Source of the DNA: an uncultured Candidatus Saccharibacteria bacterium
Lineage (GTDB): Bacteria; Patescibacteriota; Minisyncoccia; Phycocordibacterales; DAORIS01
Assembly (NCBI GenBank): GCA_964442365.1
Contig: CAYTZA010000001.1
Location: forward strand, 1-48,904
Reading direction: 5' to 3'
Length of the DNA stretch: 48,904 bases
Below are positions 1 through 40,693 of the stretch, piece by piece. How positions within the stretch are numbered: position 1 is the stretch's first letter; every line of letters begins with the position of its first letter. The notes under the pieces were generated by a model. It made no database searches and was not told the DNA's origin. It saw nothing but the letters and a program-made list of their open reading frames with translations. Both the position numbers and the translations under genes were made by a program.

Positions 1-222
1 TGAGGTCTGCAACTCGACCTCATGAAGCCGGAATTGCTAGTAATCGCAGGTCAGCTATACTGCGGTGAATACGTTCTCAAGTCTTGTACTCACCGCCCGT
101 CAACTCAAGGGAGTTGGGAATACCCGAAATATCACGTATGTGGTCCTAAGGTAAGCTCAATGACAGGGAGTAAGTCGTAACAAGGCACGGGTAGCGGAAG
201 CTGCTCGTGGAATATTTCAAAT
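1..222 (+). rRNA. rrs: 16S rRNA, 3'-terminal ~220 nt (partial; gene continues off the left edge)
   Basis: Conserved 16S 3'-domain strings read directly: GGAATTGCTAGTAATCG, GGTGAATACGTTC, CACCGCCCGTCA, AAGTCGTAACAAGG. Helix 45 is CACGGGTAGC/GGAA/GCTGCTCGTG at 186-209. The 3' end is placed ~13 nt after helix 45 by analogy with E. coli, so it is uncertain by about 10 nt. Confidence 0.93.
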
Positions 223-324
223 GAACAACGTTTTGATTGTGCTTCGGCCTTTCAAAACTTAAAAGGCGATTATCTCTTCTGCGCAAGTAGATAGAGATAA
301 GATCATAGTGTTGTATCTTTACAT

Positions 325-350
325 GACACTCGTTTTGCTAGGTATACGTA
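325..350. repeat. Left copy of an imperfect direct repeat (GACACTCGTTTTGCTAGGTATACGTA)
   Basis: Shares an exact 11-mer GACACTCGTTT plus GGTA..CGTA with 1485-1509. About 22 of 27 aligned columns match, with two small indels. Confidence 0.5.
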
Positions 351-478
351 ACTAGATCTATATAACACAGGATGTTGTATATGAACGGTAAGCCTCTAAT
401 CTTTCGAGATTTTGGCAAGCCTTAAGAACGGAACAAAATAAAGGACAATATACACAAATCCACCCCAAAAGGGTGGAT

Positions 479-507
479 TTGACATTGTACACAGTACATG
501 ATATAGT
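479..507 (+). promoter_or_regulatory. Near-consensus sigma70-type promoter (TTGACA-17 nt-TATAGT)
   Basis: TTGACA at 479-484, a 17-nt spacer, TATAGT at 502-507. The -35 overlaps the 3' arm of a 10-bp hairpin AAATCCACCC/caaaa/GGGTGGATTT (456-480). Confidence 0.6.
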
Positions 508-569
508 CTTGGTTGGTTCTCTTTTTGTTTTTCACACCTTTTTTCCCGCTTAGCGGGAAGGAGAAGAGT

Positions 570-740
570 ATGCCTGAGCAGATTCGGCCGCATGGGGTTT
601 CCGTTGAAGAGGTGCGTGAGGGTGCCGTGTTGCGTGCAAGGCACAAGATTCGCACCGGCGCTTATGACCATCCTGACGCACTCGAGGGCGTGCTGAAAGG
701 GCTCGCGCGGGATCTCGGTGTCGAGATTGTCGGTGACTGA
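570..740 (+). CDS. Small hypothetical protein (56 aa); C-terminal half weakly resembles FlgM-type anti-sigma factors
   Basis: ATG at 570 is preceded by AAGGAG (558-563) with a 6-nt spacer. The region is G+C-rich (hand count 38/60 G+C for 601-660). The string RHKIRTGAYDHPDALEGVL resembles the conserved I..G.Y.vD segment of FlgM. The longer 513..740 ORF-track call is rejected in favour of the SD-led ATG. Confidence 0.5.
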   Translation: MPEQIRPHGVSVEEVREGAVLRARHKIRTGAYDHPDALEGVLKGLARDLGVEIVGD

Positions 741-789
741 ACGGGGCGGTAAGGGAGAGAGAAACGCAATAGGAGAAGGAAAGGGAGTT

Positions 790-825
790 GGGGTCGCTAG
801 ACAACTGTTCTGGCGGCCCCTTTTT
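790..825 (+). terminator. Intrinsic terminator (GGGGTCGC...GCGGCCCC + TTTTT)
   Basis: 8-bp G+C-rich stem with one mismatch (790-797 / 813-820), followed by TTTTT at 821-825, 50 nt after the stop at 738-740. Confidence 0.6.
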
Positions 826-877
826 AATACCTAAATTTATACACAAAATTACCCTCAAGTAGAGTCTTTTGAGGTAC

Positions 878-907
878 TTGACAGATAGGGTGTAAAGGTG
901 ATATAAT
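878..907 (+). promoter_or_regulatory. Consensus sigma70-type promoter (TTGACA-18 nt-TATAAT)
   Basis: TTGACA at 878-883 and TATAAT at 902-907. Confidence 0.6.
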
Positions 908-976
908 ATATAGTGAATGTGCATAGAGCTGGTATGTTCCAGATCTAGAGCATATGTTCTTTCGAAAGGAGATTTG

Positions 977-1486
977 ATGGCACGTTCTCTTCTTATCGTC
1001 GTATGCGTTCTTGTGGTCTGGATGACCACTGCATCACAGGCGATAGCAGAGACGCCAAGGACGGCGCTGATCGAAGCCTTGATTCACGTTGAATCAAAAG
1101 GCAATGACCGTGCTCATGGAGACAAACATCTCCCTGACCATGCGTATGGTTGTCTCCAGATCAGGCAACCCTGTGTCGACGATGTGAATAGTCGATACGG
1201 CACGAATTATCGAGCGCAAGACTGCTTCGGTAATCGTGAGCTCTCGTTGTGGATCTTCCATAGGTATATGGATATCTATGCGACAGAGTCTCGAATAGGT
1301 CGTAAGGTGACCTATCAGGACATGTCCAGGATCTGGAACGGGGGACCGTCTGGATGCTTCGACGATGGGTCTATCGACAAAAACGGTCGAAAGCCCAAAA
1401 GTGCAAAGGCTCGCCGGAAAGTTTCTGAGACTCAGAAACGGGCGAAGATTGAGTATTGGCAGAAGAAAGTAAAACCTCTTCTCTGA
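977..1486 (+). CDS. Secreted lytic transglycosylase / lysozyme-like (SLT-type) protein
   Basis: AAGGAG at 966-971, 5-nt spacer, ATG at 977. The N-terminus MARSLLIVVCVLVVWMTTASQAIA looks like a Sec signal peptide. The catalytic-type motif is LIHVESKGN...AYGCLQI (E-S ... G-L/C-x-Q). The ORF-track start at 917 is rejected. Confidence 0.7.
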   Translation: MARSLLIVVCVLVVWMTTASQAIAETPRTALIEALIHVESKGNDRAHGDKHLPDHAYGCLQIRQPCVDDVNSRYGTNYRAQDCFGNRELSLWIFHRYMDIYATESRIGRKVTYQDMSRIWNGGPSGCFDDGSIDKNGRKPKSAKARRKVSETQKRAKIEYWQKKVKPLL

Positions 1487-1509
1487 CACTCGTTTGTTCT
1501 TGGTACGTA
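1485..1509. repeat. Right copy of the imperfect direct repeat (GACACTCGTTTGTTCTTGGTACGTA)
   Basis: See 325-350. This copy overlaps the stop codon of the 977..1486 CDS and the 5' arm of the first GGAU hairpin. Confidence 0.5.
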
Positions 1510-1584
1510 GGATTACGTACTGTGCAGGTGGATACCTGCTGTCAATATTGGAGTATAAAACCGCTTGGAGGATTCCAGGCGGTT
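1503..1584 (+). other. Three tandem hairpins, each presenting GGAU in the loop
   Basis: GTACGTA-GGAT-TACGTAC (1503-1520); GCAGGT-GGAT-ACCTGC (1524-1539); AACCGCTTGG-AGGATT-CCAGGCGGTT (1559-1584, one G:U pair). None is followed directly by a U-tract. Confidence 0.6.
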
Positions 1585-1647
1585 AAGTGTATATGGATAT
1601 TATTTTTTCTTGTAATTTAGATATTTTTGAGGTAATCTTTGCATATT

Positions 1648-1720
1648 GCGCTTGTAGCTCAGTTGGTAGAGCACATCACTGATACTGATGGGGTCCCAGG
1701 TTCGAATCCTGGCAGGCGCA
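1648..1720 (+). tRNA. tRNA-Ile (anticodon GAU)
   Basis: Cloverleaf folded by hand: acceptor GCGCTTG/CAGGCGC, D arm GCTC-AGTTGGTA-GAGC, anticodon arm CATCA-CTGATAC-TGATG, T arm CCAGG-TTCGAAT-CCTGG, discriminator A. CCA is not encoded. Confidence 0.93.
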
Positions 1721-1865
1721 CAAAAACAACAAGTGAGTCTTCGAGCGAGTATGTTTTTGTAGCGTGGGGTATTTTTATACTACCGCACAAAAGTAAGTTT
1801 CCACTGGCTAAAAAGTCTAAAATACGTTACTATATCTCCTTAAATTATATATTCACGTTTATTTT

Positions 1866-3290
1866 ATGATACCCGAAAAAAAGACAAAGATCGTTGCAAC
1901 TATTGGTCCAGCTACAGAGAAAGAACCTGTTTTTACTAAACTTGTAGAAGCGGGTTTAAATGTTATGCGACTTAACTTCTCCCATGGAGATTTTGCTGAA
2001 CATCAAGCTCGTGTCGATGTATGTCGTAAGGTATCAAAAAAGTTTGGTGTTTCTGTTGCTATTCTTCAAGATCTATCTGGTCCAAAGATTCGTATTGGTG
2101 AGTTTGGTACACCAAACGGTCGTATTACACTTATTCCTGGAAAAGCATTTACGATTACAACTGACAAGATTGTGGGTGATGAAAATCGCGTATCAGTGAA
2201 CTATCCTACTTTGCCAGAAGAGCTTAAGGTTGGAAATATGGTACTTCTCGATGACGGAAAAAAACGTCTTGAAGTTACAGCTATTAAAGGCAATGATATC
2301 GTTTGTAAAGTTATTATAGGTGGTGATACAAAAGGTCGTCGAGGAGTTAATCTTCCTGGCGCATATCTCAAGATTAGTTCTATTACTGAAAAAGATCGTA
2401 AAGACTTAGAATTTGGTATTAAAAACAAAGCTGATTTTATTGCTCTTTCTTTTGTACGACGTCCTGAAGATATTTTGGAACTTCGTGGTTTACTCACTAA
2501 AGCAAAATCAGAAGCAAAGATTATTGCTAAAATTGAGACTGAAGAAGCTATTGAAAATCTCGATGCTATTATCGATCTAACTGACGGTGTTATGGTTGCT
2601 CGTGGAGATCTTGCTATTGAAATACCTGCAGAAAAAGTACCCCTTATACAGAAACGTATTATTGCTCGTTGTAATGAACTCGGTAAACCAGTGATTACTG
2701 CTACACAGATGCTCGAGTCTATGATTAAGAGTCCTGTTCCTACACGTGCTGAAGTATCTGATATTGCTAACGCTATTATCGATGGTACTGATGCGGTCAT
2801 GCTATCAGAAGAAACTACACTTGGTGAATACCCTATAGAGGCAGTAAAAGTTATGACTAGAGTGTCTTTGGAAGTAGAAAAGACATACGATCTTCAGAGA
2901 AGTATTGAAGATATTACTCATGAAAGTCCTCGTCCTGTCGATGCTGTTTCTGGTGCTGTTGTACATGTTGCTGAAGAAATTGGTGCCACATGTATTGTCG
3001 CTCTTACACACTCTGGTACGACAGCTCGTTTGGTATCACGTTTTAAACCTTCGCAGTTGATTATCGGAGCTACACCGTTTGAAAAGACTTATAATCAGTT
3101 GGCACTTACAGGCAACACTATGCCTCTTATGGTAAAAAAGACTACGACACTTATGGCTGCATTTGCTGAAGTTAAAAAGACACTTCTTAAAAAGAAAATT
3201 GTAGAAAAGGGAGATAAAGTGGTGATTATTGCTGGTTTGCCATTTAGTAAACAGGTCAATACCAATATGTTGGTAGTAGAGACTATTTAG
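1866..3290 (+). CDS. pyk: Pyruvate kinase
   Basis: 474-aa ORF with KTKIVATIGPA, MRLNFSHG, MVARGDLAIEIP and DAVMLSEETTLG. Confidence 0.93.
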   Translation: MIPEKKTKIVATIGPATEKEPVFTKLVEAGLNVMRLNFSHGDFAEHQARVDVCRKVSKKFGVSVAILQDLSGPKIRIGEFGTPNGRITLIPGKAFTITTDKIVGDENRVSVNYPTLPEELKVGNMVLLDDGKKRLEVTAIKGNDIVCKVIIGGDTKGRRGVNLPGAYLKISSITEKDRKDLEFGIKNKADFIALSFVRRPEDILELRGLLTKAKSEAKIIAKIETEEAIENLDAIIDLTDGVMVARGDLAIEIPAEKVPLIQKRIIARCNELGKPVITATQMLESMIKSPVPTRAEVSDIANAIIDGTDAVMLSEETTLGEYPIEAVKVMTRVSLEVEKTYDLQRSIEDITHESPRPVDAVSGAVVHVAEEIGATCIVALTHSGTTARLVSRFKPSQLIIGATPFEKTYNQLALTGNTMPLMVKKTTTLMAAFAEVKKTLLKKKIVEKGDKVVIIAGLPFSKQVNTNMLVVETI

Positions 3291-3310
3291 TCTTTATTTA
3301 AATACCCTTT

Positions 3311-4102
3311 ATGGGTACTTTAGGGGCAGTCTGGTATACTATTTTCTATATGAATACATTTGCAAAATCGTATGTCTTAACAGACACAGACCTGCTTATG
3401 GACGTTGATAATAAACGTCAGGCTGGTTACGTTATCAAGGTTCGTGATATGGAAGAATCAGATAAGCCTCGAGAGAAGCTTATTGCCGGTGGTCCAGGAG
3501 CACTTTCTGTAGCAGAACTTATGGCAATTGTACTTGGTACGGGGACTAAAAAAGAGGAAGTATTAGAAATGGCTAATCGAGTAGTTAAAGAATATGGTGA
3601 AAGAATCTTGTCTCGACAAGTAAGCGCAGAACAGTTGGCAACAGATCTTGATATTCCTATAGGAAAAGCTTCTCAAATTGTTGCGGTTGGAGAGCTTGGA
3701 AGACGTTTTTTTGATAAAACAGCTGAAGGTCTTGCAGTGATTCGTACACCGGAGGATGCACACCACTATTTGCGTGATATGCATAATCTTCCTAAGGAAC
3801 ATGTGCGTGGTATTTATCTAAATACTCACTATCAAGTAATACACGATGAAGTGATTTCTATTGGTACTGTAAACTCTAATCTCGTTCATCCACGTGAAGT
3901 ATTTCGTCCTGCTTTACAATACGGCGCAGCGGCAGTGATTATTGCCCACAATCATCCGTCTGGAGTTATGAAGGCATCAGATTCTGATATTGCTACTACT
4001 AAACAAATCGTAGAAGCAGGAAAAATTCTTGGTATTCATGTAATTGATCATATTATTGTAAGTGGTGATAAATTCATTAGTGTGGATGTCAGTTATGAAT
4101 GA
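3311..4102 (+). CDS. radC: RadC-family JAB-domain protein
   Basis: KPREKL...LSVAELMAIVLGTG (HhH region) and the JAMM-like AHNHPSG motif. An alternative start is the ATG at 3350. Confidence 0.85.
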   Translation: MGTLGAVWYTIFYMNTFAKSYVLTDTDLLMDVDNKRQAGYVIKVRDMEESDKPREKLIAGGPGALSVAELMAIVLGTGTKKEEVLEMANRVVKEYGERILSRQVSAEQLATDLDIPIGKASQIVAVGELGRRFFDKTAEGLAVIRTPEDAHHYLRDMHNLPKEHVRGIYLNTHYQVIHDEVISIGTVNSNLVHPREVFRPALQYGAAAVIIAHNHPSGVMKASDSDIATTKQIVEAGKILGIHVIDHIIVSGDKFISVDVSYE

Positions 4103-10533: not shown

Positions 10534-11417
10534 ATTTGTATCCAGTTACTTGGTATAACATCTCTTGTTTTGACTCTTTTGTCGGCAATCCATTGTTTTG
10601 GAGCGATCACTATTTTTTTATTGTTTGGATTAAGCCATGCTCCCCACCAACTAAAACTTGAATTGGCAATAATATGATGATCACAAGAGCTCATGAGAAT
10701 AATTTCCTCGTAGTCAAACTTTCCATAGTCAGCAGGGTCTGGGCGAGACATGTAGTGATCTTGTACACCAAGGGGTAGTATTTGTGGTAGATGTTCTTTT
10801 GCCCATTCTATATCGTCAGAAAATATAAACACAGAATATGTACCAAGTTTTTCTGTTAGTAGAGCAAGGGCTTTTTTATAATATTCTATATCACACATAC
10901 CAAAACGTTTGCTGATACTTGGATTATTTGCATAATCACCACGTCGAACATGAAGAGAAATTGCTGGTGTAGAAGTTTTGATTGTATTGCGTAGTGATGT
11001 TGCTTGTGTTGTAAGAGGAGTTTTGAGGGTTAATTCTTTCCGTATTTCATCGGCTATTGGAGAAAAGTATTTTTCACTTTGCCAGAATCCTTCTAAATAT
11101 GAATCATTTTGTACAGAAAAATATTGAGGATTAAAAATATATGCTTGGTGTGGGAATATCTTTCTTTTTATTTTTCTTAAAAGTCTCTTTTTAAAAGTAT
11201 GCTGAGCGAGTGATTCTGTTTCGGTGATAAGTCGAGCTTTTATATTGAAATGATCTAATTTGAAATTGCGCACGGCGTCATTTGTCTGGAACTGCCAAGT
11301 GGTATACGTAGTATGATCCAATACTAGTTCAGTATTCTGTTTTGTAGCAAGAGCTCTACCAAAAGCGTATTGGAATAGTTGGTTGCCGAGCCCGCCTACA
11401 AGTTTAATCGTTATCAT
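10530..11417 (-). CDS. GT11-family alpha-1,2-fucosyltransferase
   Basis: Hallmark GT11 motifs GGLGNQLFQYAFGRALA and HVRRGDY, plus SSFSWWGAWL near the C-terminus. Confidence 0.85.
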   Translation of the reverse strand: MITIKLVGGLGNQLFQYAFGRALATKQNTELVLDHTTYTTWQFQTNDAVRNFKLDHFNIKARLITETESLAQHTFKKRLLRKIKRKIFPHQAYIFNPQYFSVQNDSYLEGFWQSEKYFSPIADEIRKELTLKTPLTTQATSLRNTIKTSTPAISLHVRRGDYANNPSISKRFGMCDIEYYKKALALLTEKLGTYSVFIFSDDIEWAKEHLPQILPLGVQDHYMSRPDPADYGKFDYEEIILMSSCDHHIIANSSFSWWGAWLNPNNKKIVIAPKQWIADKRVKTRDVIPSNWIQI

Positions 11418-11421
11418 GTGT

Positions 11422-12612
11422 CTATTGTACTAGAGATGCATAAAATGCAAGATATGCATCGGTCATGTGTTTGAGTGTAAATCTGGTATGAACTTTTTGT
11501 ATAGACTGTTCTCCCATGCGACCATATTCTTCTTTTGACAAAGAAAATAGTGTATTTAGATTAGTAATTAGTTCGCTAGTATTTTCTTTGTTTGTTATAT
11601 AGCCGTTTTGTTCATGCTCTACTGCTTCAGCAACACCACCAACATCAAATGCAACAATTGGTAGACCACAAGACATGGCTTCCAAAATAACCAAAGGAAA
11701 GTTTTCAGCGATAGAAGTAAAGAGTAGGGCATCCGATGCGGAATAATAAAGGGCCAAAGTTTTTTTGTCACTGATATGTGTGATATTCAGAATGTTACTC
11801 TGACTTTCTTCTGGTTTGTGATAGCCAACAATTACAAAAAGTGTATTTGAATCTTGTGCATATGATTTTATAACTTTCTCAGCGTGAACCCATCCTTTCC
11901 AGGGATTTTTTTTAGGATCATCGGCAAGAAACAATACAATTTTTTTATCGTGAGGGAGATTTAGAATATTTCGTGCTTCTTGTTTGTCTTTACGTACAAA
12001 AACTGATGTATCTATGCCATTATAAATAAGGCGTACATCTTGCGTGTCCAGAACTGTTTTTTCCAGTCTTTTTTTTAGCCAGAGTGATGGAGCTACAATA
12101 TGAAGCTTTGATTTTTTATATATTTGAGATTTTCTCCAGGTTAGGTAGTAATCATTGTTCCAGAGAGTACGTGGTTGCATATTAATACTCGGACAAGTAT
12201 ATAGACCATTGCATAGTTTGGTATTTTCTAGTGAGTGAGCGCAGTGTGCTGTAAGAGCCCATTCGTCGTGTAGTGTCCAGATTACGGGTTTTAAAAGGGA
12301 CATTTTTTGGAGAGTAGAAAGATTAAAGAATCTTCCGTGGAGGTTATGACAGTGCACTATATCAGCCTCTTTAAATTCTTTAGTTTTGAGTATCCAGTCA
12401 CTTTTTAAAAGATCATCAGTAGCTAAAAGAAAACCAAGATATTTACGCCATTTTTGTCGAGGAATTATTTTGACTTTTGGATCTTGGCTACGCTTATCAG
12501 CTACAAACATAGAAACAGTATGTCCTTGTTTTTCAAGTGCTTGTTTGATATCCCATGATACTTTAGCGGCTCCACCCATTATATCTGTCGTGCCTATGAT
12601 TAGAATATTCAT
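11422..12612 (-). CDS. GT4 (GT-B fold) glycosyltransferase
   Basis: N-terminal GGAAKV and the C-terminal E..AMSCGLPIVAFDVGGVAEAVEH signature. Confidence 0.85.
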   Translation of the reverse strand: MNILIIGTTDIMGGAAKVSWDIKQALEKQGHTVSMFVADKRSQDPKVKIIPRQKWRKYLGFLLATDDLLKSDWILKTKEFKEADIVHCHNLHGRFFNLSTLQKMSLLKPVIWTLHDEWALTAHCAHSLENTKLCNGLYTCPSINMQPRTLWNNDYYLTWRKSQIYKKSKLHIVAPSLWLKKRLEKTVLDTQDVRLIYNGIDTSVFVRKDKQEARNILNLPHDKKIVLFLADDPKKNPWKGWVHAEKVIKSYAQDSNTLFVIVGYHKPEESQSNILNITHISDKKTLALYYSASDALLFTSIAENFPLVILEAMSCGLPIVAFDVGGVAEAVEHEQNGYITNKENTSELITNLNTLFSLSKEEYGRMGEQSIQKVHTRFTLKHMTDAYLAFYASLVQ

Positions 12613-20490: not shown

Positions 20491-20760
20491 TTAACCAAGT
20501 TTGATATGGAAGGGGATATCTAGAACAAGAGCTAGTCTTCGTATAAAAGAAAGAGACGGAGTAGTTTGTGCGTTTTCAACACGAGAAATAACTGATTGTT
20601 TTGTTTTTAATTTTCGAGCAAGTTTTTCTTGGGTGTAGCCCTTTTTGATTCGTGCTTCTATGAGAGCACAAGCGATTTGGAATTCTAATTCAGATTCAGC
20701 ATATGCTTTTCTGAAGGCGGGATTCTTCATAAGTTCTTTTTTATGTTCCAAGAAATTCAT
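20491..20760 (-). CDS. XRE-family HTH antitoxin (HigA-like)
   Basis: 89-aa ORF. KGYTQEKLARKLKTKQSVISRVEN is a classic XRE helix-turn-helix. It lies immediately downstream of the toxin gene. Confidence 0.8.
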   Translation of the reverse strand: MNFLEHKKELMKNPAFRKAYAESELEFQIACALIEARIKKGYTQEKLARKLKTKQSVISRVENAQTTPSLSFIRRLALVLDIPFHIKLG

Positions 20761-20783
20761 ATAGTTATATTATCACAATTTTG

Positions 20784-21137
20784 TTATATTACAAATTTGT
20801 AGTTATTTAGTCTTTTGATTGCTGTATTAATCTCTTGTATCTCGGTTTTTTGGGTTTTCTTTTTGAATATATGAAGAATAAGAAATGTTCGTTCTATTTG
20901 TGTTACATAAAAAACACGAATATTATCTGATCCAAGTATTCTGATTTCCCATAAAGATGTATTTCTAATTTTTTTAATATGCGGCGGACCAAGACGTATT
21001 CCGTATTTTTTTAATAATTCTATAGAGCGAATGACTTTTATTTGTGTCTTTTCTTGCAAAGTATTAATAAACTCTTCAATTAGTTTGTCTCCTCTTGCAG
21101 ATTCATAATAAACAATATTCCAAGGTTCTTCATTCAT
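20784..21137 (-). CDS. RelE/ParE-superfamily toxin (Gp49/HigB-like)
   Basis: 117-aa ORF with IEEFINTL..K....I...I.LL...G..L..PH.K......LWEIR....IRVFY, the pattern of phage Gp49-like HigB toxins. Toxin-first gene order. Confidence 0.75.
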   Translation of the reverse strand: MNEEPWNIVYYESARGDKLIEEFINTLQEKTQIKVIRSIELLKKYGIRLGPPHIKKIRNTSLWEIRILGSDNIRVFYVTQIERTFLILHIFKKKTQKTEIQEINTAIKRLNNYKFVI

Positions 21138-21242
21138 GAGACTACGATTACACAGTGACCATAAAGAATCTTATAGAAGAAGATAAAAAGATCATAAAAA
21201 CCACACTTTTCGATTGGGGATAAATATGATACGATTGCCCGT

Positions 21243-23771
21243 ATGTTTTCACTCGCAGGACTATTTAAAGGTGGTAGTAATACATCTATAATAAAGAAAT
21301 ATAAGCCTCGTATTGAGGCTATAAACGCTTTAGAAGAGGTATATACAAAGCTTTCGACAGAAGAGTTAAAGGGGCGTACTGTAGCGTTTCGTGAGCGCTT
21401 AGAGAAGGGTGAATATCTTGATGATCTATTGCCAGATGCATTTGCTGCTGTTCGTGAGGCTGCAAAACGCACACTCAATCAGAGGCATTTTGATGTGCAG
21501 CTTGTTGGAGGCATGATACTCCACTCTGGAGCGATAGCTGAAATGAAGACAGGAGAAGGAAAGACACTTGTTGCTACGCTTCCAACATATCTCAATGCTC
21601 TTATGGGGCAGGGTGCACACGTGGTTACTGTAAACGATTATCTTTCTCGCCGTGATGCTGTATGGATGGGTCAAATATATGACGCTCTTGGTATGACTGT
21701 TGGTGTTATAAACAGTGATCTTTCTTTTAGATATGATCCGAGTCATAAAGAAGAAGACAAAGAACGTGATGAGGTCGCTTCTTTTAAAGTTATGTACGAT
21801 TTTCTTCGTCCGTGTAGTCGTACTGAAGCATATGCTGCTGATATTACTTATGGTACCAACAATGAATACGGCTTTGATTATCTTCGTGACAACATAGAAT
21901 ATCAAGTATCTTCACTTCGTCAGCGTGGACATTATTTTGCTATTGTCGACGAAGTAGACTCTATACTTATCGATGAAGCACGTACTCCTCTTATTATCTC
22001 TGCGCCTACGGTTGAATCAGAAAATCTTTATGCGGTATTTTCAAAAATTGCTGATAAACTTTCAGAGGGTGAGCACTATACGATTGATGAGAAACTTAGA
22101 CAGATACAACTTACTGACAAAGGTATAGAACAAGCTGAAAAAGCTCTTGGTGTTGATAATATTTACACTGAGAAAGGTATTAAATACGTACATCATTTGG
22201 AAACAGCCGTACGCGCAAAGGCTTTATTTAAAAGAGAAAAAGAATATGTTGTACGCAACGGTGAAGTAATTATTGTTGATGAATTTACTGGGCGCATGCA
22301 ACCAGGGCGTCGTTGGTCTGATGGTTTGCATCAAGCGGTTGAATCAAAAGAAGGTGTCAATGTCCAGAAAGAAACACGTACTTACGCTTCTATTACATTT
22401 CAAAATTATTTTCGTCTATACAAAAAACTTGCAGGTATGACTGGTACGGCTGTAACTTCAAAAGAAGAGTTTTATAAAGTATACGGTTTAGATACGATGG
22501 TTGTGCCTACACATCGTCCTATTGCCAGACTCGATCTTAACGATCGTATATATCAAAGTGAACATGGTAAATTTTTGGCTGTAGCGCAACAAGTAAAAGC
22601 GTTGCATGAAAAAGGACAACCTGTACTTATTGGTACGGTCTCTATAGAAAAAAATGAAACCTTTTCTTCATATTTGGATAAAATTTCTGTACCGTATCAA
22701 GTACTCAATGCTAAGAATCATGAAAAAGAAGGAGAGATAATTGCTCAGGCAGGAAAGAAGGGTGGTGTTACGATTGCTACAAACATGGCAGGCCGAGGAG
22801 TGGATATTAGACTTGGCGGAGCAGGATCTAGTCCTGAAGAATATGATGCTATTAAAAATCTTGGTGGATTGTTTGTAATAGGTACAGAAAGACATGAGGC
22901 ACGACGTATTGATAATCAGCTTCGAGGTCGTTCTGGAAGACAGGGTGATCCTGGTAGTACACAGTTTTTTGTATCACTCGAAGATCCTATTATGCGCGTG
23001 TTTGCTTCAGATTTGGTAAAACGCATGATGGGTAAGCTTGGCATGAAAGAAGATGAACCTATTGAAAATAGATTATTAACCAGGGGACTTGAATCAGCAC
23101 AGACTAAAATAGAAGGATTACATTTTGATTCTCGTAAACATACACTACAGTATGATGATGTACTTAACTATCAAAGAAAAATTGTATATGAAAGACGTCG
23201 ATCTGTTTTGCTTGGGCAAGAACCAGAACTGAAAAAAGTACTCGAAGATATATTACTTAGCGAAAATATTGCTGATGATGTCAAAAAGAGTATTGAAGAA
23301 AAAAAGAAGACTCTTGGTGACGAAGAGTTTTACAAAACATTTAGACGTATCATGTTACAAACAATTGATATGTTTTGGATAGATCATCTTGAACAGATGG
23401 ATTATCTTAGAAGTTCAGTTAATCTTCGTGCCTATGGACAACGTGATCCGCTTGTTGAGTATAAAAAAGATGGACTAAGACTCTTTAAAGAAATGCAAGG
23501 ATCTATCAACGCTCACGCTCTGTCACTTATAGGATCTATTGCAGAAAGTGCTCCTACTGATATCGAACGTGTTATGCAAAAAGTTCAGGCACAAGCGAGT
23601 CTTATTGGTGGATCAGATACTGCTTCATCACCCATAATATTGAAAGGACAGAAAGAAGAAAAGAAAGGAAGAAATGACAAAGTATCTGTGGAAAAAGATG
23701 GAGTCAAAAAAGAGATAAAATATAAACACCTTGACCAGCATATCCAAGAAGGCTGGAAAGAAGTTGTATGA
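21243..23771 (+). CDS. secA: Preprotein translocase ATPase SecA
   Basis: 842 aa with RHFDVQLVGGMILH, AEMKTGEGKTLVA, VVTVNDYL, VDEVDSILIDEARTPLIIS, GMTGTA, TNMAGRGVDI and LRGRSGRQGDPG. Confidence 0.95.
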   Translation: MFSLAGLFKGGSNTSIIKKYKPRIEAINALEEVYTKLSTEELKGRTVAFRERLEKGEYLDDLLPDAFAAVREAAKRTLNQRHFDVQLVGGMILHSGAIAEMKTGEGKTLVATLPTYLNALMGQGAHVVTVNDYLSRRDAVWMGQIYDALGMTVGVINSDLSFRYDPSHKEEDKERDEVASFKVMYDFLRPCSRTEAYAADITYGTNNEYGFDYLRDNIEYQVSSLRQRGHYFAIVDEVDSILIDEARTPLIISAPTVESENLYAVFSKIADKLSEGEHYTIDEKLRQIQLTDKGIEQAEKALGVDNIYTEKGIKYVHHLETAVRAKALFKREKEYVVRNGEVIIVDEFTGRMQPGRRWSDGLHQAVESKEGVNVQKETRTYASITFQNYFRLYKKLAGMTGTAVTSKEEFYKVYGLDTMVVPTHRPIARLDLNDRIYQSEHGKFLAVAQQVKALHEKGQPVLIGTVSIEKNETFSSYLDKISVPYQVLNAKNHEKEGEIIAQAGKKGGVTIATNMAGRGVDIRLGGAGSSPEEYDAIKNLGGLFVIGTERHEARRIDNQLRGRSGRQGDPGSTQFFVSLEDPIMRVFASDLVKRMMGKLGMKEDEPIENRLLTRGLESAQTKIEGLHFDSRKHTLQYDDVLNYQRKIVYERRRSVLLGQEPELKKVLEDILLSENIADDVKKSIEEKKKTLGDEEFYKTFRRIMLQTIDMFWIDHLEQMDYLRSSVNLRAYGQRDPLVEYKKDGLRLFKEMQGSINAHALSLIGSIAESAPTDIERVMQKVQAQASLIGGSDTASSPIILKGQKEEKKGRNDKVSVEKDGVKKEIKYKHLDQHIQEGWKEVV

Positions 23772-24850: not shown

Positions 24851-26150
<1,300 letters not shown>

Positions 26151-26192: not shown

Positions 26193-26597
26193 CTACTTAG
26201 TGAGCTTGCTTTTTACAAAACGACACAAGTTCTCAACGGTAAACAAGTCTTGAAGTTCTTCGACCTTGCGATGTGTTTCGAAAGCATCTAGACCCTTAAT
26301 GTGCCGAAATTTCTTCCTCATTTTTTTCATACCAAGGTCAGTGACTAGACCGTTTTTAACGCAGTCCGGCTCATCAATTATGCTCTCAGCAGTCATTTCG
26401 CCTGGGTTGATTTTGATCCTCCACATTCTTTCGGCGCGGAAGGTGATGTCGAGTCGGTCGATAGATTCTGCTCCAAGATCAGCATAGATTCTGGATGTGT
26501 AAGTGACTTCCTCTTCATCAACACCGAGAGCTTCGGCGAGAAGTTTCTGAACCTTTTGGAAGATTTCTTGATCAGACGGACAGTTTTTTACGAGCAT
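26193..26597 (-). CDS. Acyl/peptidyl carrier protein-like domain protein with a ~65-aa C-terminal extension
   Basis: ATG at 26597, preceded by AAGGAGG (26608-26602) and a 4-nt spacer. ...LLAEALGVDEEEVTYTSRIYADLGAESIDRLDITF matches the ACP helix II region (DLGxDSLD), with Ser in GAES. The 26193..26759 N-terminal extension reads through the SD (..QQGG..) and is rejected. Confidence 0.6.
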   Translation of the reverse strand: MLVKNCPSDQEIFQKVQKLLAEALGVDEEEVTYTSRIYADLGAESIDRLDITFRAERMWRIKINPGEMTAESIIDEPDCVKNGLVTDLGMKKMRKKFRHIKGLDAFETHRKVEELQDLFTVENLCRFVKSKLTK

Positions 26598-26687: not shown

Positions 26688-28211
26688 ATGAAAAAAATGA
26701 AGCAACAAACAGTACTTATTGTCCTTGATGGCTGGGGATATCGAGAAGATACTCTTCACAATGCTATTGCTTCAGCCCATACACCTGTATTTAAGAAATT
26801 ATGGTCTCAATATCCGCACACTCTACTTGAAGCTTCTGGTTTGGCTGTTGGTTTGCCAGATGGTCAAATGGGTAATAGTGAGATTGGGCATACTACTATA
26901 GGAGCTGGAAAAGCGATCGATACTGACCTTGTGCGAATTAAAAAAGCTATTGATTCAGGAACTTTCGGAAAGAATCCAGCTTTTGTAGCACTATTTGAGA
27001 ATGTTAAAAAATACGATTCTACTTTACATGTTGTAGGTCTTCTTGGTGATGGTGGAGTTCATGCTCATAGTGAGCATCTATTTGCTTTTATTCGATCAGC
27101 TAAAGATTATGGTATTGAGCGTGTTGCTTTGCATATATTTACTGATGGTCGGGACACACCGCCACAAAGTGCCGGTCAATATCTAGAAGAACTTGAACAA
27201 GTTTTACAGAATATTGGTATAGGTTTTATCGCTACAATATCCGGGCGATTTTATGCTATGGATCGTGATAATAATTGGGATCGGTTAGAAAAAGTTGAGC
27301 AAGCTCTTTTTGAGTGCAAGGGGCATGTATGTCATCTTAAAGAAAATACACCATCAGAAAAAATTAATAAATTATATACGGAAGGTAAACAAGACGAACA
27401 TCTTGAACCTCATGTATTTTTAAATAAAGAAGGCAAAGGATCTTATATTGCAGACAATGATTCTGTGTTCTTTTTTAATTTTCGAGCAGACAGAGCCAGA
27501 ATGCTTTCTCGAAAATTTATGGAAAAAAGAGAAAGTAAAAATATATGTTTTACAACAATGACATCGTACGGGACAGAATTTCCTTGCCTTATTGCTTTTC
27601 CTCAGGTTTCGATAGAAACAACGATTGCAAAAGAAGTATCAGATGCAAATCTTACACAAGCTCATATTGCTGAAACAGAAAAATTTCCTCATGCCACATA
27701 TTTTTTAAATGGAGGTGTTGAAAACCCTTATAAAGGGGAAGAACATGTTTTACTTCCATCAAGAAAAGATGTTGACACTCATGATCTTGCTCCTCGTATG
27801 CGTGCTGAAGCAATCGCCGATGAAGCAATTAAGCGTATTCAAAGTGGAGTTGATTTTATTTTTATAAATTTTGCCAATCCAGACATGGTAGGACATACGG
27901 CTAACGTACCCGCAATAATCGAAGCGGTTGAAGAAGTTGATAAACAACTTGGTCGGGTACTAGATGTTTTACATAAAAAAAGCGGAGTAGCTTTTGTGAC
28001 TGCGGACCATGGCAATGCTGAGACTAATATAGATCTCATAACGGGAGATAAACATACTGCTCATACTTTAAATCAAGTACCGGCCATAGTAACTAAAGGT
28101 GGTATATCTTTGAAACAATGGGGCACACTCGCTGATATTGCTCCAACAGTACTTAGCTTGCTTGATATTCGTGTACCAGATTCTATGACGGGGAAAAGTT
28201 TGATACAATAA
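26688..28211 (+). CDS. gpmI: 2,3-bisphosphoglycerate-independent phosphoglycerate mutase
   Basis: LIVLDGWGY, MGNSEIGHTTIGAG, GGVHAH, HIFTDGRDT, NFANPDMVGHT and TADHGN. Start set at ATG 26688 (MKKMKQQ). Confidence 0.92.
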   Translation: MKKMKQQTVLIVLDGWGYREDTLHNAIASAHTPVFKKLWSQYPHTLLEASGLAVGLPDGQMGNSEIGHTTIGAGKAIDTDLVRIKKAIDSGTFGKNPAFVALFENVKKYDSTLHVVGLLGDGGVHAHSEHLFAFIRSAKDYGIERVALHIFTDGRDTPPQSAGQYLEELEQVLQNIGIGFIATISGRFYAMDRDNNWDRLEKVEQALFECKGHVCHLKENTPSEKINKLYTEGKQDEHLEPHVFLNKEGKGSYIADNDSVFFFNFRADRARMLSRKFMEKRESKNICFTTMTSYGTEFPCLIAFPQVSIETTIAKEVSDANLTQAHIAETEKFPHATYFLNGGVENPYKGEEHVLLPSRKDVDTHDLAPRMRAEAIADEAIKRIQSGVDFIFINFANPDMVGHTANVPAIIEAVEEVDKQLGRVLDVLHKKSGVAFVTADHGNAETNIDLITGDKHTAHTLNQVPAIVTKGGISLKQWGTLADIAPTVLSLLDIRVPDSMTGKSLIQ

Positions 28212-28216
28212 ACAAT

Positions 28217-29248
28217 ATGATATCAGAACGATTTCAACATGTTTATTTCTTTACACTTCTTCTTGGTGTAGGGGTTATTATCTATTTTATATTTCAGCCT
28301 TTTATCACTGCTCTTTTTCTTGCGGCTATGTGTGCCGTGGCATGTGAAGAGATTCATATATGGTTTAAAAAGCGCATGCCAACAAGAAAAAACATGGCAG
28401 CTTTTTTGGCAGTTATCGGAGTATTGATTGTGGTATTTGTGCCACTTAGTATTTTAGGTGTTTTAGTATTTAATGAAGCGCGTGATTTTTATACAACCCT
28501 TGCTGACGCTTCATCTTCTGCGGGCATTATTGATCAAACTCTGTCACGCTTCGAAGAACAGATTCAAGTATACGTCCCTCAGTTTAATATTGATCTTCGT
28601 TTGTATATAGAATCTGGACTACAGTGGATTTTGAATCATGCCACTCAGTTTTTTGCTAGTTTCCTAACAGTTTTACTCAACTTGTTTATTATGGTGATTA
28701 CTCTTTTTTATCTATTTCGTGATGGAAAAGAGTTCAGAAATTATTTGATAAAGCTCAGCCCCTTTGATGAAAAGGATGATGAAGATATTATCAAGCGTAT
28801 AGAACTTACGATAAGTTCTGTTATTAAAGGAACTTTAATTATCGGTATCATACAAGGTGTGTGTACTGCTGCTGGATTTATGCTATTTGGTATCAGTCAA
28901 CCGATCTTGTGGGGTACTGTTGCTGCTGTAGCTTCGCTTATTCCTGGAGTTGGTACAGCTCTTGTAAGTGTGCCAGCAATACTTATACTGTTTGCAAGTG
29001 GTAACATATTTGGTGCTATTGGTTATGCAGTATGGGCAGGATTTTTGATTGGATCTGTAGATAACGTACTTGGTCCAATACTTATGGAACGTCGTATTCA
29101 ATTACATCCTCTTTTGATTCTTATTTCAGTTCTTGGTGGATTAGTATTTTTTGGACCAATTGGTTTTCTTGCTGGGCCTGTAGTGCTTGCTCTTGCTACC
29201 GAACTTATTAAACTCTATCCAAAATTTGTAAACAATCCTCATGCCTAA
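28217..29248 (+). CDS. AI-2E family transporter (PerM/UPF0118-type permease)
   Basis: 343-aa polytopic membrane ORF with the family's C-terminal pattern IPGVGTALV...GP.L....I.LHPL..L.....GG..FG..G....P. Confidence 0.75.
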   Translation: MISERFQHVYFFTLLLGVGVIIYFIFQPFITALFLAAMCAVACEEIHIWFKKRMPTRKNMAAFLAVIGVLIVVFVPLSILGVLVFNEARDFYTTLADASSSAGIIDQTLSRFEEQIQVYVPQFNIDLRLYIESGLQWILNHATQFFASFLTVLLNLFIMVITLFYLFRDGKEFRNYLIKLSPFDEKDDEDIIKRIELTISSVIKGTLIIGIIQGVCTAAGFMLFGISQPILWGTVAAVASLIPGVGTALVSVPAILILFASGNIFGAIGYAVWAGFLIGSVDNVLGPILMERRIQLHPLLILISVLGGLVFFGPIGFLAGPVVLALATELIKLYPKFVNNPHA

Positions 29249-32533: not shown

Positions 32534-32537
32534 ATAT

Positions 32538-32821
32538 AGACGTCGGATAACTGCTGGTTTTACTTCGGTAAGACTAGAGGAAAGTCCGAACACTCCCTTG
32601 GCTTGCCAAGGAGAAGGGTAGCGGGTAACGCCCGCCATGCGAAAGCAAGAGATGCGAACAGAGACGAGTCCATCGTAAGATGGGGTGAAACGGCAAAATT
32701 CTTACCTGAGTGCAAGGCCGTGCTTCGTGAGTAATCATGAAGAGAGCCGCTTGAGGTGCGTAGCAATACACATCCCAGATATATAGTTGTCTAAAACAGA
32801 ATTCGGCTTATAGACGTCGAC
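32538..32821 (+). ncRNA. rnpB: RNase P RNA (bacterial type, compact)
   Basis: Universal motifs GAGGAAAGTCCGAAC (P4 5' strand region), GGGTGAAACGGC, and ACAGAATTCGGCTTATAG near the 3' end. Ends are inferred from the promoter and the downstream hairpin (about +/-10 nt). Confidence 0.88.
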
Positions 32822-32866
32822 ATCCCCGTCAAACAATAAAATGTTAGACGGGGATTGTTCGTTTGG
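32822..32866 (+). terminator. Hairpin/terminator after rnpB
   Basis: 9-bp stem ATCCCCGTC/GACGGGGAT (32822-32830 / 32847-32855), followed by TGTTCGTTTGG (a weak U-tract). Confidence 0.5.
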
Positions 32867-32890
32867 TAAATAGGTTATAATACAGAGCAT

Positions 32891-35242
32891 ATGAACACTG
32901 AACATACAATAGAAACAGCTTCACGTTTTGAAAAAATAGTCGTAGGCGTGTTATACGTATTAATATTTTTATTACCTTTTTTAATATTACCGTCTGAATC
33001 TTTTTTTGGTGTAAGTAAAATTATACTTATTTCTATTTCAATATTTGCATGTGCTATTGGTTTAATATTGCACAGTCTTTTCAAGGGAAAAATTGAAATA
33101 CCTCAATCAAAACTATTAGGATCTTTCGGGGTATTATTTTTGGTTTATCTTATAGCGGGATTTGCTTCATCAAATTACGGAGTATCATTTATTGGTTTCG
33201 TCTCTCACGATACAGTCTTTTTTATTGGTTTAATGACAGTGTTTGTTTATATAGTTTCTAGTGTATTTGTATCGCGTACTCGTTCAGTGTTACTTTTTTG
33301 GTTGATGTTGATTGGAGGTCTAGTGCTTGGTGTTTTAGAACTTTGTAGTCTATTTTTCCCTTCTTTTGTTCCTATTGCAATTTTACGTGATCCAGCAGTT
33401 ACTCTCTTTGGTTCAATGAGTGATACTGCAATTTATTTTGGTCTCATGTTGGTATTAACCTTGGGTGCACTTGAATTTGTAAAATCTAGCGGAATAAGTC
33501 GTTACATACTTTGGTGTTTGTTTGTGATTTCTCTAGTATTTCTTACTATTATCAATGTTCCTTTGGTGTGGTATGTAATAGGCTCCTTTGCTTTGATTGT
33601 TTTTATTTATAGTTTTTCAACTAAAATTTCTTTAAAAGATTCATCTCGTACCCCCGTACTCCCTTTAGTTATTCTTGTTATTGCTGTATTTTCTATTTTA
33701 TTTGCTGGTAAAAATATATATAGTGTTTTGGCGGAAGTACCAGGGCTATCCTGGGTGGCACCACTTAATATCTCTACTATTGAAGCGAGGCCTTCTTTTA
33801 TGACAACTATTGGTATTGGAAAACAAGTTTTTTTAGACAAATATATTTTAGGATATGGTCCAAATCGTTTTCGTGAAGCTTGGAATCGCTACCATCCAGC
33901 TGAAGTAAATTACACTCAATTTTGGGACACTGATTTTTTTGTTGGATTTAGTATTGTTATTAGTTCAATAGTTACTATTGGTATTGTTGGGTTACTTTCG
34001 TGGTTTGCATGTATAGGATTTTTCTTATATACAGGCTACAAAGCTTTGTTTAGACGTATGGAGAACATATCTCATAAATTTTCTCTCGGAGTTTCTTTTT
34101 TGGGTGGATTATATTTATGGATTTTTGTGATCATATACTCTCCAAATACAAGTATTGTTACGCTCGCTTTCTTTTTTACAGGACTTTTTATAGCCGCTTG
34201 TATTCACGAGAAAATTATACCTGTGCGTACTATATCTATCACTGAAGATCCTAGGGTTGCTTTTGCTGGTGTATCAGGTTTGGTTGTGTCTCTAATTATT
34301 GTTATCGTTGTCTCGTATTATGTGGGTGTTACTTTTGCTTCGGTTGTTTATGCTAATTATGCTTCTTATGAATATGAAACAGGTAATATCGCCAGCGCCG
34401 AGGTTTCTATTAATAAAGCGCTTAGTTTAAAAGAGGACGATGGATATTATCGTTTTTATACAATCCTTTCTCTCGCAAAGTTAAACGCACTTTTGGCTGA
34501 AACTTCTGGTAAGAGTGCTCAAAGTGATGTGGAGGGAGTATTACAAAATACATTGCAGATTGCTTCTCGATCTGTAGCTCTCGATGATAAGGATTATTTA
34601 AACTGGATGAATCTTGGTCGTGTATATCAAACAATTACCACTCCAGATAATCCAAACGCTTACGAACAGGCTCTAAAAGCTTATTCTGAAGCTGAAATAC
34701 TTAACCCACAAAATCCATCAATCGTATTAACAAAAGCACAGCTAGAAAGAGCCTACGGTGATATTAAAAAGGCTAAAGAATATATTGCTTCTGCTCTGAC
34801 AAAGAAAAATGATTACACAGACGCTTATTTCTTACTCTCTCAGATTTTGATTGGAGAGGGATCGATTAAGGACGCTATAACTTCAGCTGAAGCTGCTACA
34901 CTAACAGCGCCTCTTAACTACGGTGTCTTTTTCCAGCTTGGATTGCTTCGATATAACAATAAAGATTACGATGGTGCTATAAGAGCATTTGAAAGAGCAG
35001 TAACACTTAACCCTCAGTATGCCAACGCTCAGTATTTTCTAGGACTTTCATATGACAAAGTAAATCGAGATAAAGATGCTATTGCTTTATTTGAGATTTT
35101 ATTAAAAAATAATCCTGACAATAAAGAGGTTGATGGTATTCTTTCAAATTTGAAAGCTGGAAAAGGAGCCTTTCCGTCAGTAACTTCTACTGCTAGTTCT
35201 TCTCCAGAGAAACGTACAACACTACCAATTAAAGATAATTAG
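32891..35242 (+). CDS. Wzy_C-like polytopic membrane protein with a C-terminal TPR domain (divergent paralogue of 16910..19135)
   Basis: Same architecture as 16910..19135, and alignable around ILGYGPNRF...QFWDTDFFVGF versus LFGWGQESF...QWFDRAHNVFLDW. C-terminal TPRs (AIRAFERAVTLNPQYANAQYFLGLSY). Confidence 0.7.
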   Translation: MNTEHTIETASRFEKIVVGVLYVLIFLLPFLILPSESFFGVSKIILISISIFACAIGLILHSLFKGKIEIPQSKLLGSFGVLFLVYLIAGFASSNYGVSFIGFVSHDTVFFIGLMTVFVYIVSSVFVSRTRSVLLFWLMLIGGLVLGVLELCSLFFPSFVPIAILRDPAVTLFGSMSDTAIYFGLMLVLTLGALEFVKSSGISRYILWCLFVISLVFLTIINVPLVWYVIGSFALIVFIYSFSTKISLKDSSRTPVLPLVILVIAVFSILFAGKNIYSVLAEVPGLSWVAPLNISTIEARPSFMTTIGIGKQVFLDKYILGYGPNRFREAWNRYHPAEVNYTQFWDTDFFVGFSIVISSIVTIGIVGLLSWFACIGFFLYTGYKALFRRMENISHKFSLGVSFLGGLYLWIFVIIYSPNTSIVTLAFFFTGLFIAACIHEKIIPVRTISITEDPRVAFAGVSGLVVSLIIVIVVSYYVGVTFASVVYANYASYEYETGNIASAEVSINKALSLKEDDGYYRFYTILSLAKLNALLAETSGKSAQSDVEGVLQNTLQIASRSVALDDKDYLNWMNLGRVYQTITTPDNPNAYEQALKAYSEAEILNPQNPSIVLTKAQLERAYGDIKKAKEYIASALTKKNDYTDAYFLLSQILIGEGSIKDAITSAEAATLTAPLNYGVFFQLGLLRYNNKDYDGAIRAFERAVTLNPQYANAQYFLGLSYDKVNRDKDAIALFEILLKNNPDNKEVDGILSNLKAGKGAFPSVTSTASSSPEKRTTLPIKDN

Positions 35243-40456: not shown

Positions 40457-40693
40457 TTACCAAGGCACAGCCTCCTCTTCAACTCGATGCGCCAGCATGC
40501 GCCCTTGAAGAATCTGTTCGGCGTATATCCTCCTTTGTTCCGGATCCATGCTTGCCAGTTGCACGAGATCAAGATTGAGATTTGGGTAAAATTCAGGACC
40601 GTGTCCCGAAAGATGCTGATCCCGATCTCTCCAAAGAGTATGCATGTCCAAGCCGAAACACGTTTTCAACAAGTTTAAGACTTTGATGAGCAT
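40457..40693 (-). CDS. Hypothetical 78-aa protein, no recognisable family
   Basis: ATG at 40693, preceded by AAGGAG (40707-40702) and an 8-nt spacer. G+C-rich (hand count 31/60 for 40481-40540). It has its own terminator and a candidate extended -10 promoter. Confidence 0.55.
   Translation of the reverse strand: MLIKVLNLLKTCFGLDMHTLWRDRDQHLSGHGPEFYPNLNLDLVQLASMDPEQRRIYAEQILQGRMLAHRVEEEAVPW

Follow-up and report, generated by a model that had tools for sequence, protein, structure and literature searches.

A 16S rRNA tail without the anti-Shine-Dalgarno core in a contig assigned to the Paceibacteria, and how its genes may be started

Introduction

How does a bacterium select its start codons if its 16S rRNA has no anti-Shine-Dalgarno (anti-SD) sequence? 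The pairing of SD with anti-SD is the textbook form of bacterial start-site selection, and the question is raised by contig CAYTZA010000001.1, a metagenomic stretch of 48,904 nt that was analysed whole and is called the window here (49 kb). It opens with the 3′ end of a 16S rRNA gene in which the CCUCC core of the anti-SD is replaced.

Few bacteria have lost the anti-SD outright: according to Amin et al. (2018; PMC6107228), 128 of 20,648 taxids lack CCUCCU, mainly some Flavobacteriia, Mycoplasma and Carsonella, with SD motifs lacking as well. In the lineage studied here the loss is already known. Tsurumaki, Saito, Tomita & Kanai (2022, RNA 28:1041; PMC9297842) detected CCTCCT at the 16S 3′ end of only 48% of Parcubacteria, and their anti-SD-less subgroup, in which SD helices are presumably not formed, overlaps the group that lacks uL1. 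Because the loss is published for that subgroup, our core finding is a re-discovery. The window shows the same feature in the same lineage, being assigned to the Parcubacteria (class Paceibacteria) and having no CCTCCT at the 16S 3′ end; its rplKAJL region lies outside the 49 kb. To the detection rate and the link with uL1 loss given by these authors we add the replacement sequence, the covariation of tail and trailer, SD statistics and a proposed initiation mechanism. Three of our observations were not found in the searched literature and are offered as additions: a promoter-at-start signature, a covarying tail/trailer hairpin across the candidate phyla radiation (CPR), and the limitation of SD motifs to mostly foreign-looking open reading frames (ORFs).

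The 16S rRNA 3′ end

The gene was identified with the Rfam SSU_rRNA_bacteria covariance model (RF00177, cmscan), which matches positions 1-222 of the plus strand with 178.8 bits (E = 8.5e-53) over model positions 1299-1533, reaching the last model position. These 222 nt are the 3′ terminus of a gene truncated by the window start. Helix 45, with its KsgA/RsmA dimethyl-A site, lies at 186-209 (+) according to both the cmscan alignment and the minimum free energy fold; its arms, CACGGGUAGC and GCUGCUCGUG, enclose a GGAA loop and form a perfect 10-bp stem (-16 kcal/mol, z = -5.6). The letters at 210-223 (+) are GAATATTTCAAATG, giving a 13-nt tail GAAUAUUUCAAAU(G) where the canonical tail reads GAUCACCUCCUUU. 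Written as RNA, GAAUAUUUCAAAUG is homologous to GAUCACCUCCUUA: the covariance-model alignment keeps G1530, A1531, A1534, U1537 and C1538 and changes CCUCC to UUUCA. The window's gene thus has the model match and the GGAA helix 45 expected of an RF00177 member, while the CCUCC core is missing from the 13-nt tail.

The plus strand of window positions 1-1700 contains no CCTCC at all. An initial annotation, made from the letters alone, had described an intact helix 45, a tail without the CCUCC core and a CCTCC-free interval from 210 to the tRNA-Ile at 1648, and all three statements are borne out. That tRNA, tRNA-Ile(GAT) at 1648-1721 (+), is followed by pyk and not by a 23S rRNA gene. A split tail with its CCUCC farther downstream is ruled out by the same empty stretch to 1700 and by relatives that have different spacers and also lack CCTCC. 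The observations support a real absence of the anti-SD, beyond its mere non-use, and with this tail no SD:anti-SD helix can form.

Metagenome assemblies are prone to chimeras at rRNA regions, and the spacer behind this 16S gene contains GC-rich DNA of foreign composition; both would suit an artefact in which a Paceibacteria 16S body was fused to unrelated sequence after helix 45. The sequence, however, occurs in wastewater metagenomes, where RNA runs were examined as assembled contigs (Logan), and two contigs from different studies span the junction exactly with 0 mismatches (193-572 in run X1, 191-507 in run X3). Exact unitigs chain across the tail (162-199, 174-211, 186-221 and 193-572), depth in X1 is even at 8-12x from the tail via the spacer into pyk, and the spacer is also seen in X2-X4. 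Contigs of relatives, many of them more abundant, match up to 219-225, beyond which they either diverge or continue at 426 or at the tRNA-Ile. Relatives thus keep the tail while their spacers differ; a chimera would produce the reverse. Identical or nearly identical tails recur in loci L090, L095 and L112 and in dozens of other relatives. The native 16S trailer (224-300, +) carries a hairpin at 230-258 and a GGCGAT box at 265-270 whose positions are conserved among Paceibacteria, so that the tail sits in its native context. An artefact at the junction, which had been named as something to check, is rejected and in our judgement has practically no chance of being the explanation.

Distribution among relatives

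Relatives were collected from a single genome for each GTDB species, using a pattern that makes no reference to the tail: TTGTACTCACCGCCCGTCA, which is the A1396U variant of the decoding centre, a gap, and AAGTCGTAACAAGG. Counts refer to the first 120 loci among the matches listed, sorted into four groups by helix 45. CCTCC occurs in 0 of the 50 loci with the Paceibacteria-type helix 45 (CACGG[G/C]UAGCGGAAGCUG..CGUG) that the window also has, in 24 of 26 ABY1-type CPR (Magasanik-, Falkow-, Uhr- and Moranbacteria), and in 22 of 23 Campylobacterota, the remaining locus having Ns. Peri-/Gracilibacteria are mixed, with CCTCC in 8 of 21 and the variants CUUCC, UCUCC and UCGCC in the other 13.

The deposited labels in the Paceibacteria-type group are Nomura-, Taylor-, Zambryski-, Ryan- and Adlerbacteria, 'Paceibacterota' and Parcubacteria, some of them evidently generic. 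Typical tails are GAAUAAUUCAAUUUGAAA, GAUUAACUCAAAUUGAG, GAACAUAUCCAAUUUGGAA and GAUUAUGUCAAGUGAC; the exact window tail, GAAUAUUUCAA, is found again in L090, in L095 (Zambryskiibacteriota) and in L112. The nearest 16S ends among the matches listed, from Taylor-, Zambryski- and Adlerbacteria and similar, are 90-93% identical to that of the window. Over a wider set of Taylor-, Zambryski-, Adler- and Nomurabacteria and 'Paceibacterota' metagenome-assembled genomes the identity is 87-93%, with helix 45 CACGGGTAGCGGAAGCTGCTCGTG in common, and the order 16S-tRNA-Ile-pyk is common to the window, L112, L097 and L034. Judged by these sequences, the organism is a low-GC (37%) wastewater member of class Paceibacteria (Parcubacteria/OD1, CPR), and the loss of its anti-SD is a class-level trait, not one peculiar to it. 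The loss pointed out by the initial annotation is confirmed. The tail is AU-rich even in the Paceibacteria locus L034, which has about 50-66% GC, and AT drift alone is thus insufficient as an explanation.

In the window the decoding-centre region at 84-102 reads GUACUCACCGCCCGUCA (A1396U; GTACTCACC), with CAAGUC instead of CGGGCC directly upstream; among the matches listed in the clade scan the A1396U variant is common to many CPR classes and to Campylobacterota. Compared with the Rfam consensus, helix 44 is about 14 nt shorter. The 16S gene is not followed by 23S, and the order 16S, a spacer of 0.7-2 kb, tRNA(-Ile) and pyk is kept in several relatives (loci examined: window 1-1869, L112, L097, L034, L012, L093, L113, L110 and L031), which indicates that the rRNA genes are unlinked.

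SD signal at gene starts

Gene starts were defined crudely, as the ATG (no other codon was accepted) of the longest ORF of at least 120 aa, and SD 4-mers were counted when they started at -16 to -8. By this measure 8% of starts have an SD 4-mer in the window, 4% in Paceibacteria loci (136 starts) and 8% in ABY1, against 26% in the Campylobacterota control. Sliding hybridisation profiles were computed with the canonical and with the observed tail, as had been proposed alongside the initial annotation, for the starts of the window and of its relatives. The canonical tail yields a flat profile in the window, in Paceibacteria and in ABY1, whereas Campylobacterota dips to -3.26 kcal/mol at -8 from a baseline of -1.12. 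The profile of the observed tail, taken over -45..+15, is flat as well, and no motif complementary to that tail was found upstream of starts in the window or in the 136 Paceibacteria genes, so that no new SD compensates for the loss.

Native genes thus have neither an SD nor a motif for the new tail. The initial annotation had reported no SD before a list of window genes whose names Pfam confirms (pyk, murD, murC, secA, eno, gpmI, obg, gatB, murB, tsaD, hsp20, the toxin-antitoxin pair and the glycosyltransferases). For native genes the flat canonical profile agrees with that report, but six other ORFs of the window do carry strong SD motifs and are treated below.

Might the new tail instead pair with a new upstream mRNA motif, as a co-evolved SD:anti-SD couple? 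The tail is conserved in the clade, with G1530, A1531 and U1537 at 90% or more, as such a couple would require. The flat observed-tail profile nevertheless contradicts it, and an alternative SD complementary to the new tail was rejected on that ground. The sublineage tails also vary (UUCA, CUCA, UCCA, UUAA) together with their own trailer and not with mRNAs, and no such case is among the 128 anti-SD-less organisms of Amin et al.; we find the idea hardly credible.

ABY1-type CPR (L003, L011, L020, L026, L029, L052 and others) keep CCUCC and show no SD signal; their anti-SD appears to be retained yet unused. In the window, a HigBA-type toxin-antitoxin-like pair at 20491-21137 (-), consisting of a Gp49/HigB-like toxin ORF of 117 aa followed by an HTH_3 antitoxin-like ORF of 89 aa, has native composition and no SD. 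For gpmI, the longest ORF starts at a TTG (26556) that probably lies upstream of the true start; since the Pfam domains begin only at residue 51, a start near 26690 is more likely, with space left on the opposite strand for an ACP-like ORF.

SD-led reading frames

The six exceptional ORFs have a strong AAGGAG-type motif 5-9 nt before their ATG. Two lie in the 1.4-kb spacer between 16S and tRNA-Ile, within a GC-rich insert (400-1500, +; about 50% GC overall, 50-61% against the 37% of the genome): ORF1 at 570-740 (+), with 61% GC, and ORF2 at 977-1486 (+), with a signal peptide and a weakly matching lysozyme/destabilase-like domain. The others are an ORF with a PP-binding/ACP-like domain at 26193-26597 (-; its SD, AAGGAGG, extends to 26612; GC content at third codon positions, GC3, 0.47), an ORF at 40457-40693 (-), a multi-HTH XRE-type regulator beside tRNA-Phe at 41283-41996 (+; SD AAAGGAGTGTG, from 41268; GC3 0.29), and an ORF beside tRNA-Val at 46617-47132 (-; the same AAAGGAGTGTG, to 47145; GC3 0.36). 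Searches of the spacer ORFs and of ORF 46617-47132 against PHROGs and Pfam gave no match, or a sub-threshold Destabilase match only. Across the six, GC3 is 0.29-0.61 compared with 0.235 +/- 0.034 for 31 native genes, which corresponds to z of at least 7 for four of them, 3.7 for one and 1.5 for one. The simplest reading is that these are recently imported genes still bearing the SD of their donors. Strong AAGGAG motifs would then persist almost only before compositionally foreign ORFs, brought in from SD-using donors.

Alternatively, the SD-led genes could be served by another rrs copy with CCUCC or by a mixed ribosome pool that includes such tails. CPR genomes usually carry a single rrn copy. 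The six ORFs themselves would be explained by such a copy, and Alteromonas with two tail types (Amin et al.) provides a precedent. Against this, none of the 50 Paceibacteria-type 16S ends has CCTCC, the SD-led ORFs are compositional outliers, and in X1-X4 zero contigs join the organism's helix 45 to a canonical tail; the loose ends that do have a canonical tail diverge already within helix 45 and hence belong to other taxa. We regard a second copy as very unlikely and keep to import as the source of these SD motifs.

Three further observations concern DNA of this kind. The GC-rich Paceibacteria locus L034 has, at about 3077-3361 between tRNA-Ile and pyk, a 38%-identical homologue of the second spacer ORF. 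Part of the insert (778-1065) is present at 19x in the wastewater RNA-type runs X5 and X8, where its flanks are absent. Beyond tRNA-Val, at 47851-48781, three short ORFs (62-93 aa) have a GC3 of about 0.5 (z of about 7-8); the region may be a further foreign patch or non-coding DNA.

Pairing of tail and trailer

Throughout the CPR, pairing connects the bases at the anti-SD position with trailer bases 3-7 nt farther downstream. Pairs were counted with register-tolerant scripts, with permutation and shuffle controls; the MAFFT alignment of 16S ends is ungapped, which puts the 3′ arm out of register where loop length varies and makes it unusable for such counts. ABY1 tails form CUCC/GGAG in 21 of 24 unique sequences, and Peri-/Gracilibacteria form a hairpin in 17 of 21 (CUCC/GGAG, UUCC/GGAA, UCUC/GAGA, GCCU/AGGC or CUCU/AGAG). 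In Paceibacteria the arms are UUCA/UGAA, CUCA/UGAG, UCCA/UGGA, UUCC/GGAA or UCCU/AGGA, with GUC/GAC also among the covarying pairs of relatives. Of 48 tails there, 24 have a stem of 4 bp or more, against a mean of 9.3 and a maximum of 20 in shuffles, and 44 have one of 3 bp or more, against 24.6 and 34; a permutation test of arm identity gave p < 1e-4. The same covariation tests were not significant for a tail/trailer hairpin in Campylobacterota. Compensatory changes of this kind indicate that the structure is selected.

The window's counterpart, recognised from covariation in relatives, is a weak hairpin at 216-225 (+), with UUC at 216-218, the loop AAAU and GAA at 223-225. The tail had been described as single-stranded at first, which need not be the whole picture: in relatives the positions that took the place of CCUCC are paired. 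The window's own stem has only 3 bp and is not predicted thermodynamically. Since its loop is where the canonical mature end would lie, the hairpin would most simply be read as a processing structure of the pre-16S 3′ end. Behind the second trailer hairpin, 40-60 nt past helix 45, 32 of 47 Paceibacteria loci have a conserved (G/T)CGAT box, against 19% in shuffles; it may be a processing or antitermination element.

The conserved, compensated hairpin could also mean that the mature end is shifted, with 16S either trimmed near helix 45 and left without a functional tail, or extended through the hairpin as a structured mini-helix. Conservation among close relatives does stop in the hairpin loop or its 3′ arm, as a shifted end would predict. 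The ABY1 group and other CPR, on the other hand, have CUCC/GGAG with the canonical end in the loop, as expected of a precursor structure, and we think a shifted end unlikely. One form of it, in our view quite a long shot, has the hairpin retained in mature 16S as a mini-helix in the platform pocket of the 30S subunit near h26, where the SD:anti-SD duplex is normally housed, and so as a cis 'SD-helix mimic'. If true, it would lock the ribosome in a state competent to initiate on leaderless mRNAs and would explain the high conservation of h26 in Parcubacteria despite the absence of an SD helix. The two models differ in the end they predict: a simple tail would end at about 220-223 (…UUUCAAAU), the cis mini-helix at about 226 or later.

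Promoters at start codons

If native genes have no SD, what marks their starts? We defined a -10-like box as a hexamer with A2, T6 and at least 4 of 6 matches to TATAAT, located 6-9 nt before the ATG. Such a box precedes 42% of starts in the window and 36% in Paceibacteria, compared with 14-15% at a control spacing. Tested on 162 starts and 1327 internal in-frame ATGs of the same genes, it occurs at 37% and 9%, respectively (p = 5e-18). Enrichment is confined to the discrete spacings of 6, 8 and 9 nt, neighbouring spacings not being enriched, and is significant for spacing 6 alone (p = 2e-8). T at -1 (57% of starts vs 27% of internal ATGs, p = 6e-14) and A at -11 (49% vs 29%, p = 1e-6) are also in excess. 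A(-11) together with a pyrimidine at -1 before A(+1) is the pattern to be expected of transcription that begins with the A of the ATG. A TGn extension of the box was dropped as independent promoter evidence, being a trend only.

In 8 of the 12 window examples the gap between the gene and the upstream one is no more than 18 nt, so that the promoter would sit in the 3′ end of the latter, and the presence of the box even at gaps below 20 nt suggests per-gene promoters. Examples on the plus strand are eno (TGg-TACAAT, 7 nt, ATG; 24856-24871), with a putatively leaderless mRNA; secA (TGa-TACGAT, 7 nt, ATG; 21230-21245); an AI-2E transporter gene (TACAAT, 7 nt, ATG at 28217; 28204-28219), 5 nt from the upstream gene; and a TPR protein gene (TATAAT, 9 nt, ATG at 32891; 32876-32893). 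On the minus strand a glycosyltransferase-11 gene (TACAAT, 6 nt, ATG at 11417; 11415-11429) has its candidate promoter within the 3′ end of the upstream gene. These genes have an organisation expected of leaderless ones, with a box at about 6-9 nt and no SD or ribosome-binding-site motif. Overlap with the upstream gene, commonly by the 4 nt of ATGA, or a distance of no more than 5 nt from it is seen for about 45% of window genes, consistent with termination-reinitiation coupling.

We propose that starts would be selected by two routes: (a) mainly on leaderless or near-leaderless mRNAs, largely per-gene transcripts made from a box that is often TGn-extended, and (b) by termination-reinitiation coupling at gene overlaps of 4-16 nt. 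Leaderless initiation linked with Parcubacteria, Paceibacteria or Patescibacteria was not found in the searched literature, which also had nothing relevant on SD in these three taxa beyond Tsurumaki et al.

Alternatively, ribosomes could load independently of SD on unstructured A/U-rich 5′ untranslated regions, as in Bacteroidia, helped by bS1 or by Kozak-like A-rich contexts, the -10-like boxes being a by-product of AT-richness. The Kozak-like pattern consists of A(-3)/A(-6). Upstream regions are indeed AT-rich (about 31-35% GC) and enriched in A from -7 to -2, and only about 40% of starts have a box at the right spacing. AT-richness would not, however, confine the box to spacings of 6, 8 and 9 nt or make it four times commoner than at internal ATGs of the same AT-rich genes, and T(-1)/A(+1) with A(-11) fits the geometry of a promoter and its transcription start site and not the A(-3)/A(-6) pattern. 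As a general account we hold the leadered route to be rather unlikely; for genes without a box, an A/U-rich, S1-type leadered route is a live rival to the leaderless and coupled initiation that we favour.

The window also encodes a bacterial type A RNase P RNA at 32535-32826 (only 292 nt; 123.9 bits), in which several helices of the 367-position model are absent or reduced in length.

Discussion

Taken together, a class-wide loss of the anti-SD, leaderless mRNAs, translational coupling and foreign SD-led ORFs would make a single explanation, which we consider probable. Several points weigh against it. Strong SD motifs are about ten times as numerous in the window as expected by chance on a rough estimate; attributing them to import is an interpretation, and ORF 41283 deviates only mildly in GC3. 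The window's own hairpin has a stem of only 3 bp, which folding of the sequence alone does not predict, and the RNA contigs of relatives run beyond 222 into spacers, so that they represent precursor RNA or DNA. The leaderless model is built on motif geometry at crudely called starts; no contig of the RNA runs covers native genes of the organism; and the TGn extension reaches only p ~0.09-0.1. With boxes at only 37-42% of starts, other SD-independent routes must exist.

The ABY1-type CPR suggest how the loss may have come about. Like Paceibacteria, they show A(-11)/T(-1) and a -10 box at the start with no SD dip, yet they keep CCUCC, so SD disuse probably came before the loss of the anti-SD. 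Era, an assembly GTPase, binds GAUCACCUCC (PMC10582724), and Paceibacteria are mostly without era (PMC12641178). Flavobacterium does not use its anti-SD but retains it because rpsU autoregulation and 16S maturation need it, the latter probably via Era or YbeY contacts (PMC13000453). SD use would have been dropped first and Era lost next, and once these constraints were lifted the anti-SD sequence would have been free to drift, decaying later in Paceibacteria.

Among known systems, some Flavobacteriia (Chryseobacterium, Elizabethkingia, Riemerella, Blattabacterium), Mycoplasma and Candidatus Carsonella (Lim et al. 2012; PMC6107228) have an intact helix 45, no anti-SD and no SD and, like the window, no compensating variant SD. 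They belong to other phyla and represent independent losses, no CPR being among the lineages named in PMC6107228; in Paceibacteria an entire class of thousands of species has lost the anti-SD. The 'SD-blind' ribosomes of Bacteroidia (F. johnsoniae, PMC13000453) retain an anti-SD that is sequestered by bS21/bS18/bS6. Native genes there are without SD genome-wide, those of the window also lack it, and our ABY1-type sample, with its anti-SD kept and SD unused, behaves like the Bacteroidia; the window is not of this type, since its anti-SD is not retained, but its SD-independent mode of working is similar. The functions for which Bacteroidia keep the anti-SD, rpsU autoregulation and 16S maturation, imply constraints that must be lifted or replaced here, where it is gone.

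The window also shares its -10 box at a fixed short distance, pyrimidine(-1) and A(+1) with Actinobacteria and Deinococcus. In these leaderless-rich bacteria the promoter box lies about 6-8 nt before the start codon, a short spacing on which GeneMarkS-2 and Zheng et al. 2011 reportedly rely. They keep a canonical anti-SD, and SD for leadered genes, whereas the window has no anti-SD and has boxes even in the 3′ ends of upstream genes. Like the window's 16S, the 12S rRNA of mammalian mitochondria is a small-subunit rRNA without an anti-SD (PMC10582724). The mRNAs of these organelles are leaderless or nearly so, and their 12S rRNA keeps helix 45 and its dimethyl-A loop. Those ribosomes are organellar, work with their own factors and retain the Era homologue ERAL1, in contrast to the mostly era-less Paceibacteria (PMC12641178).

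Paceibacteria are among the most species-rich CPR classes, and a class-wide loss implies that a large share of bacterial diversity initiates translation without an SD helix. In their genomes, gene callers and start prediction based on ribosome-binding sites will misplace starts, and SD-based expression tools will fail in these bacteria. SD-like motifs become usable as flags of recent gene import, and the comparison with ABY1 suggests an order of events that can be tested: SD disuse, Era loss and anti-SD decay.

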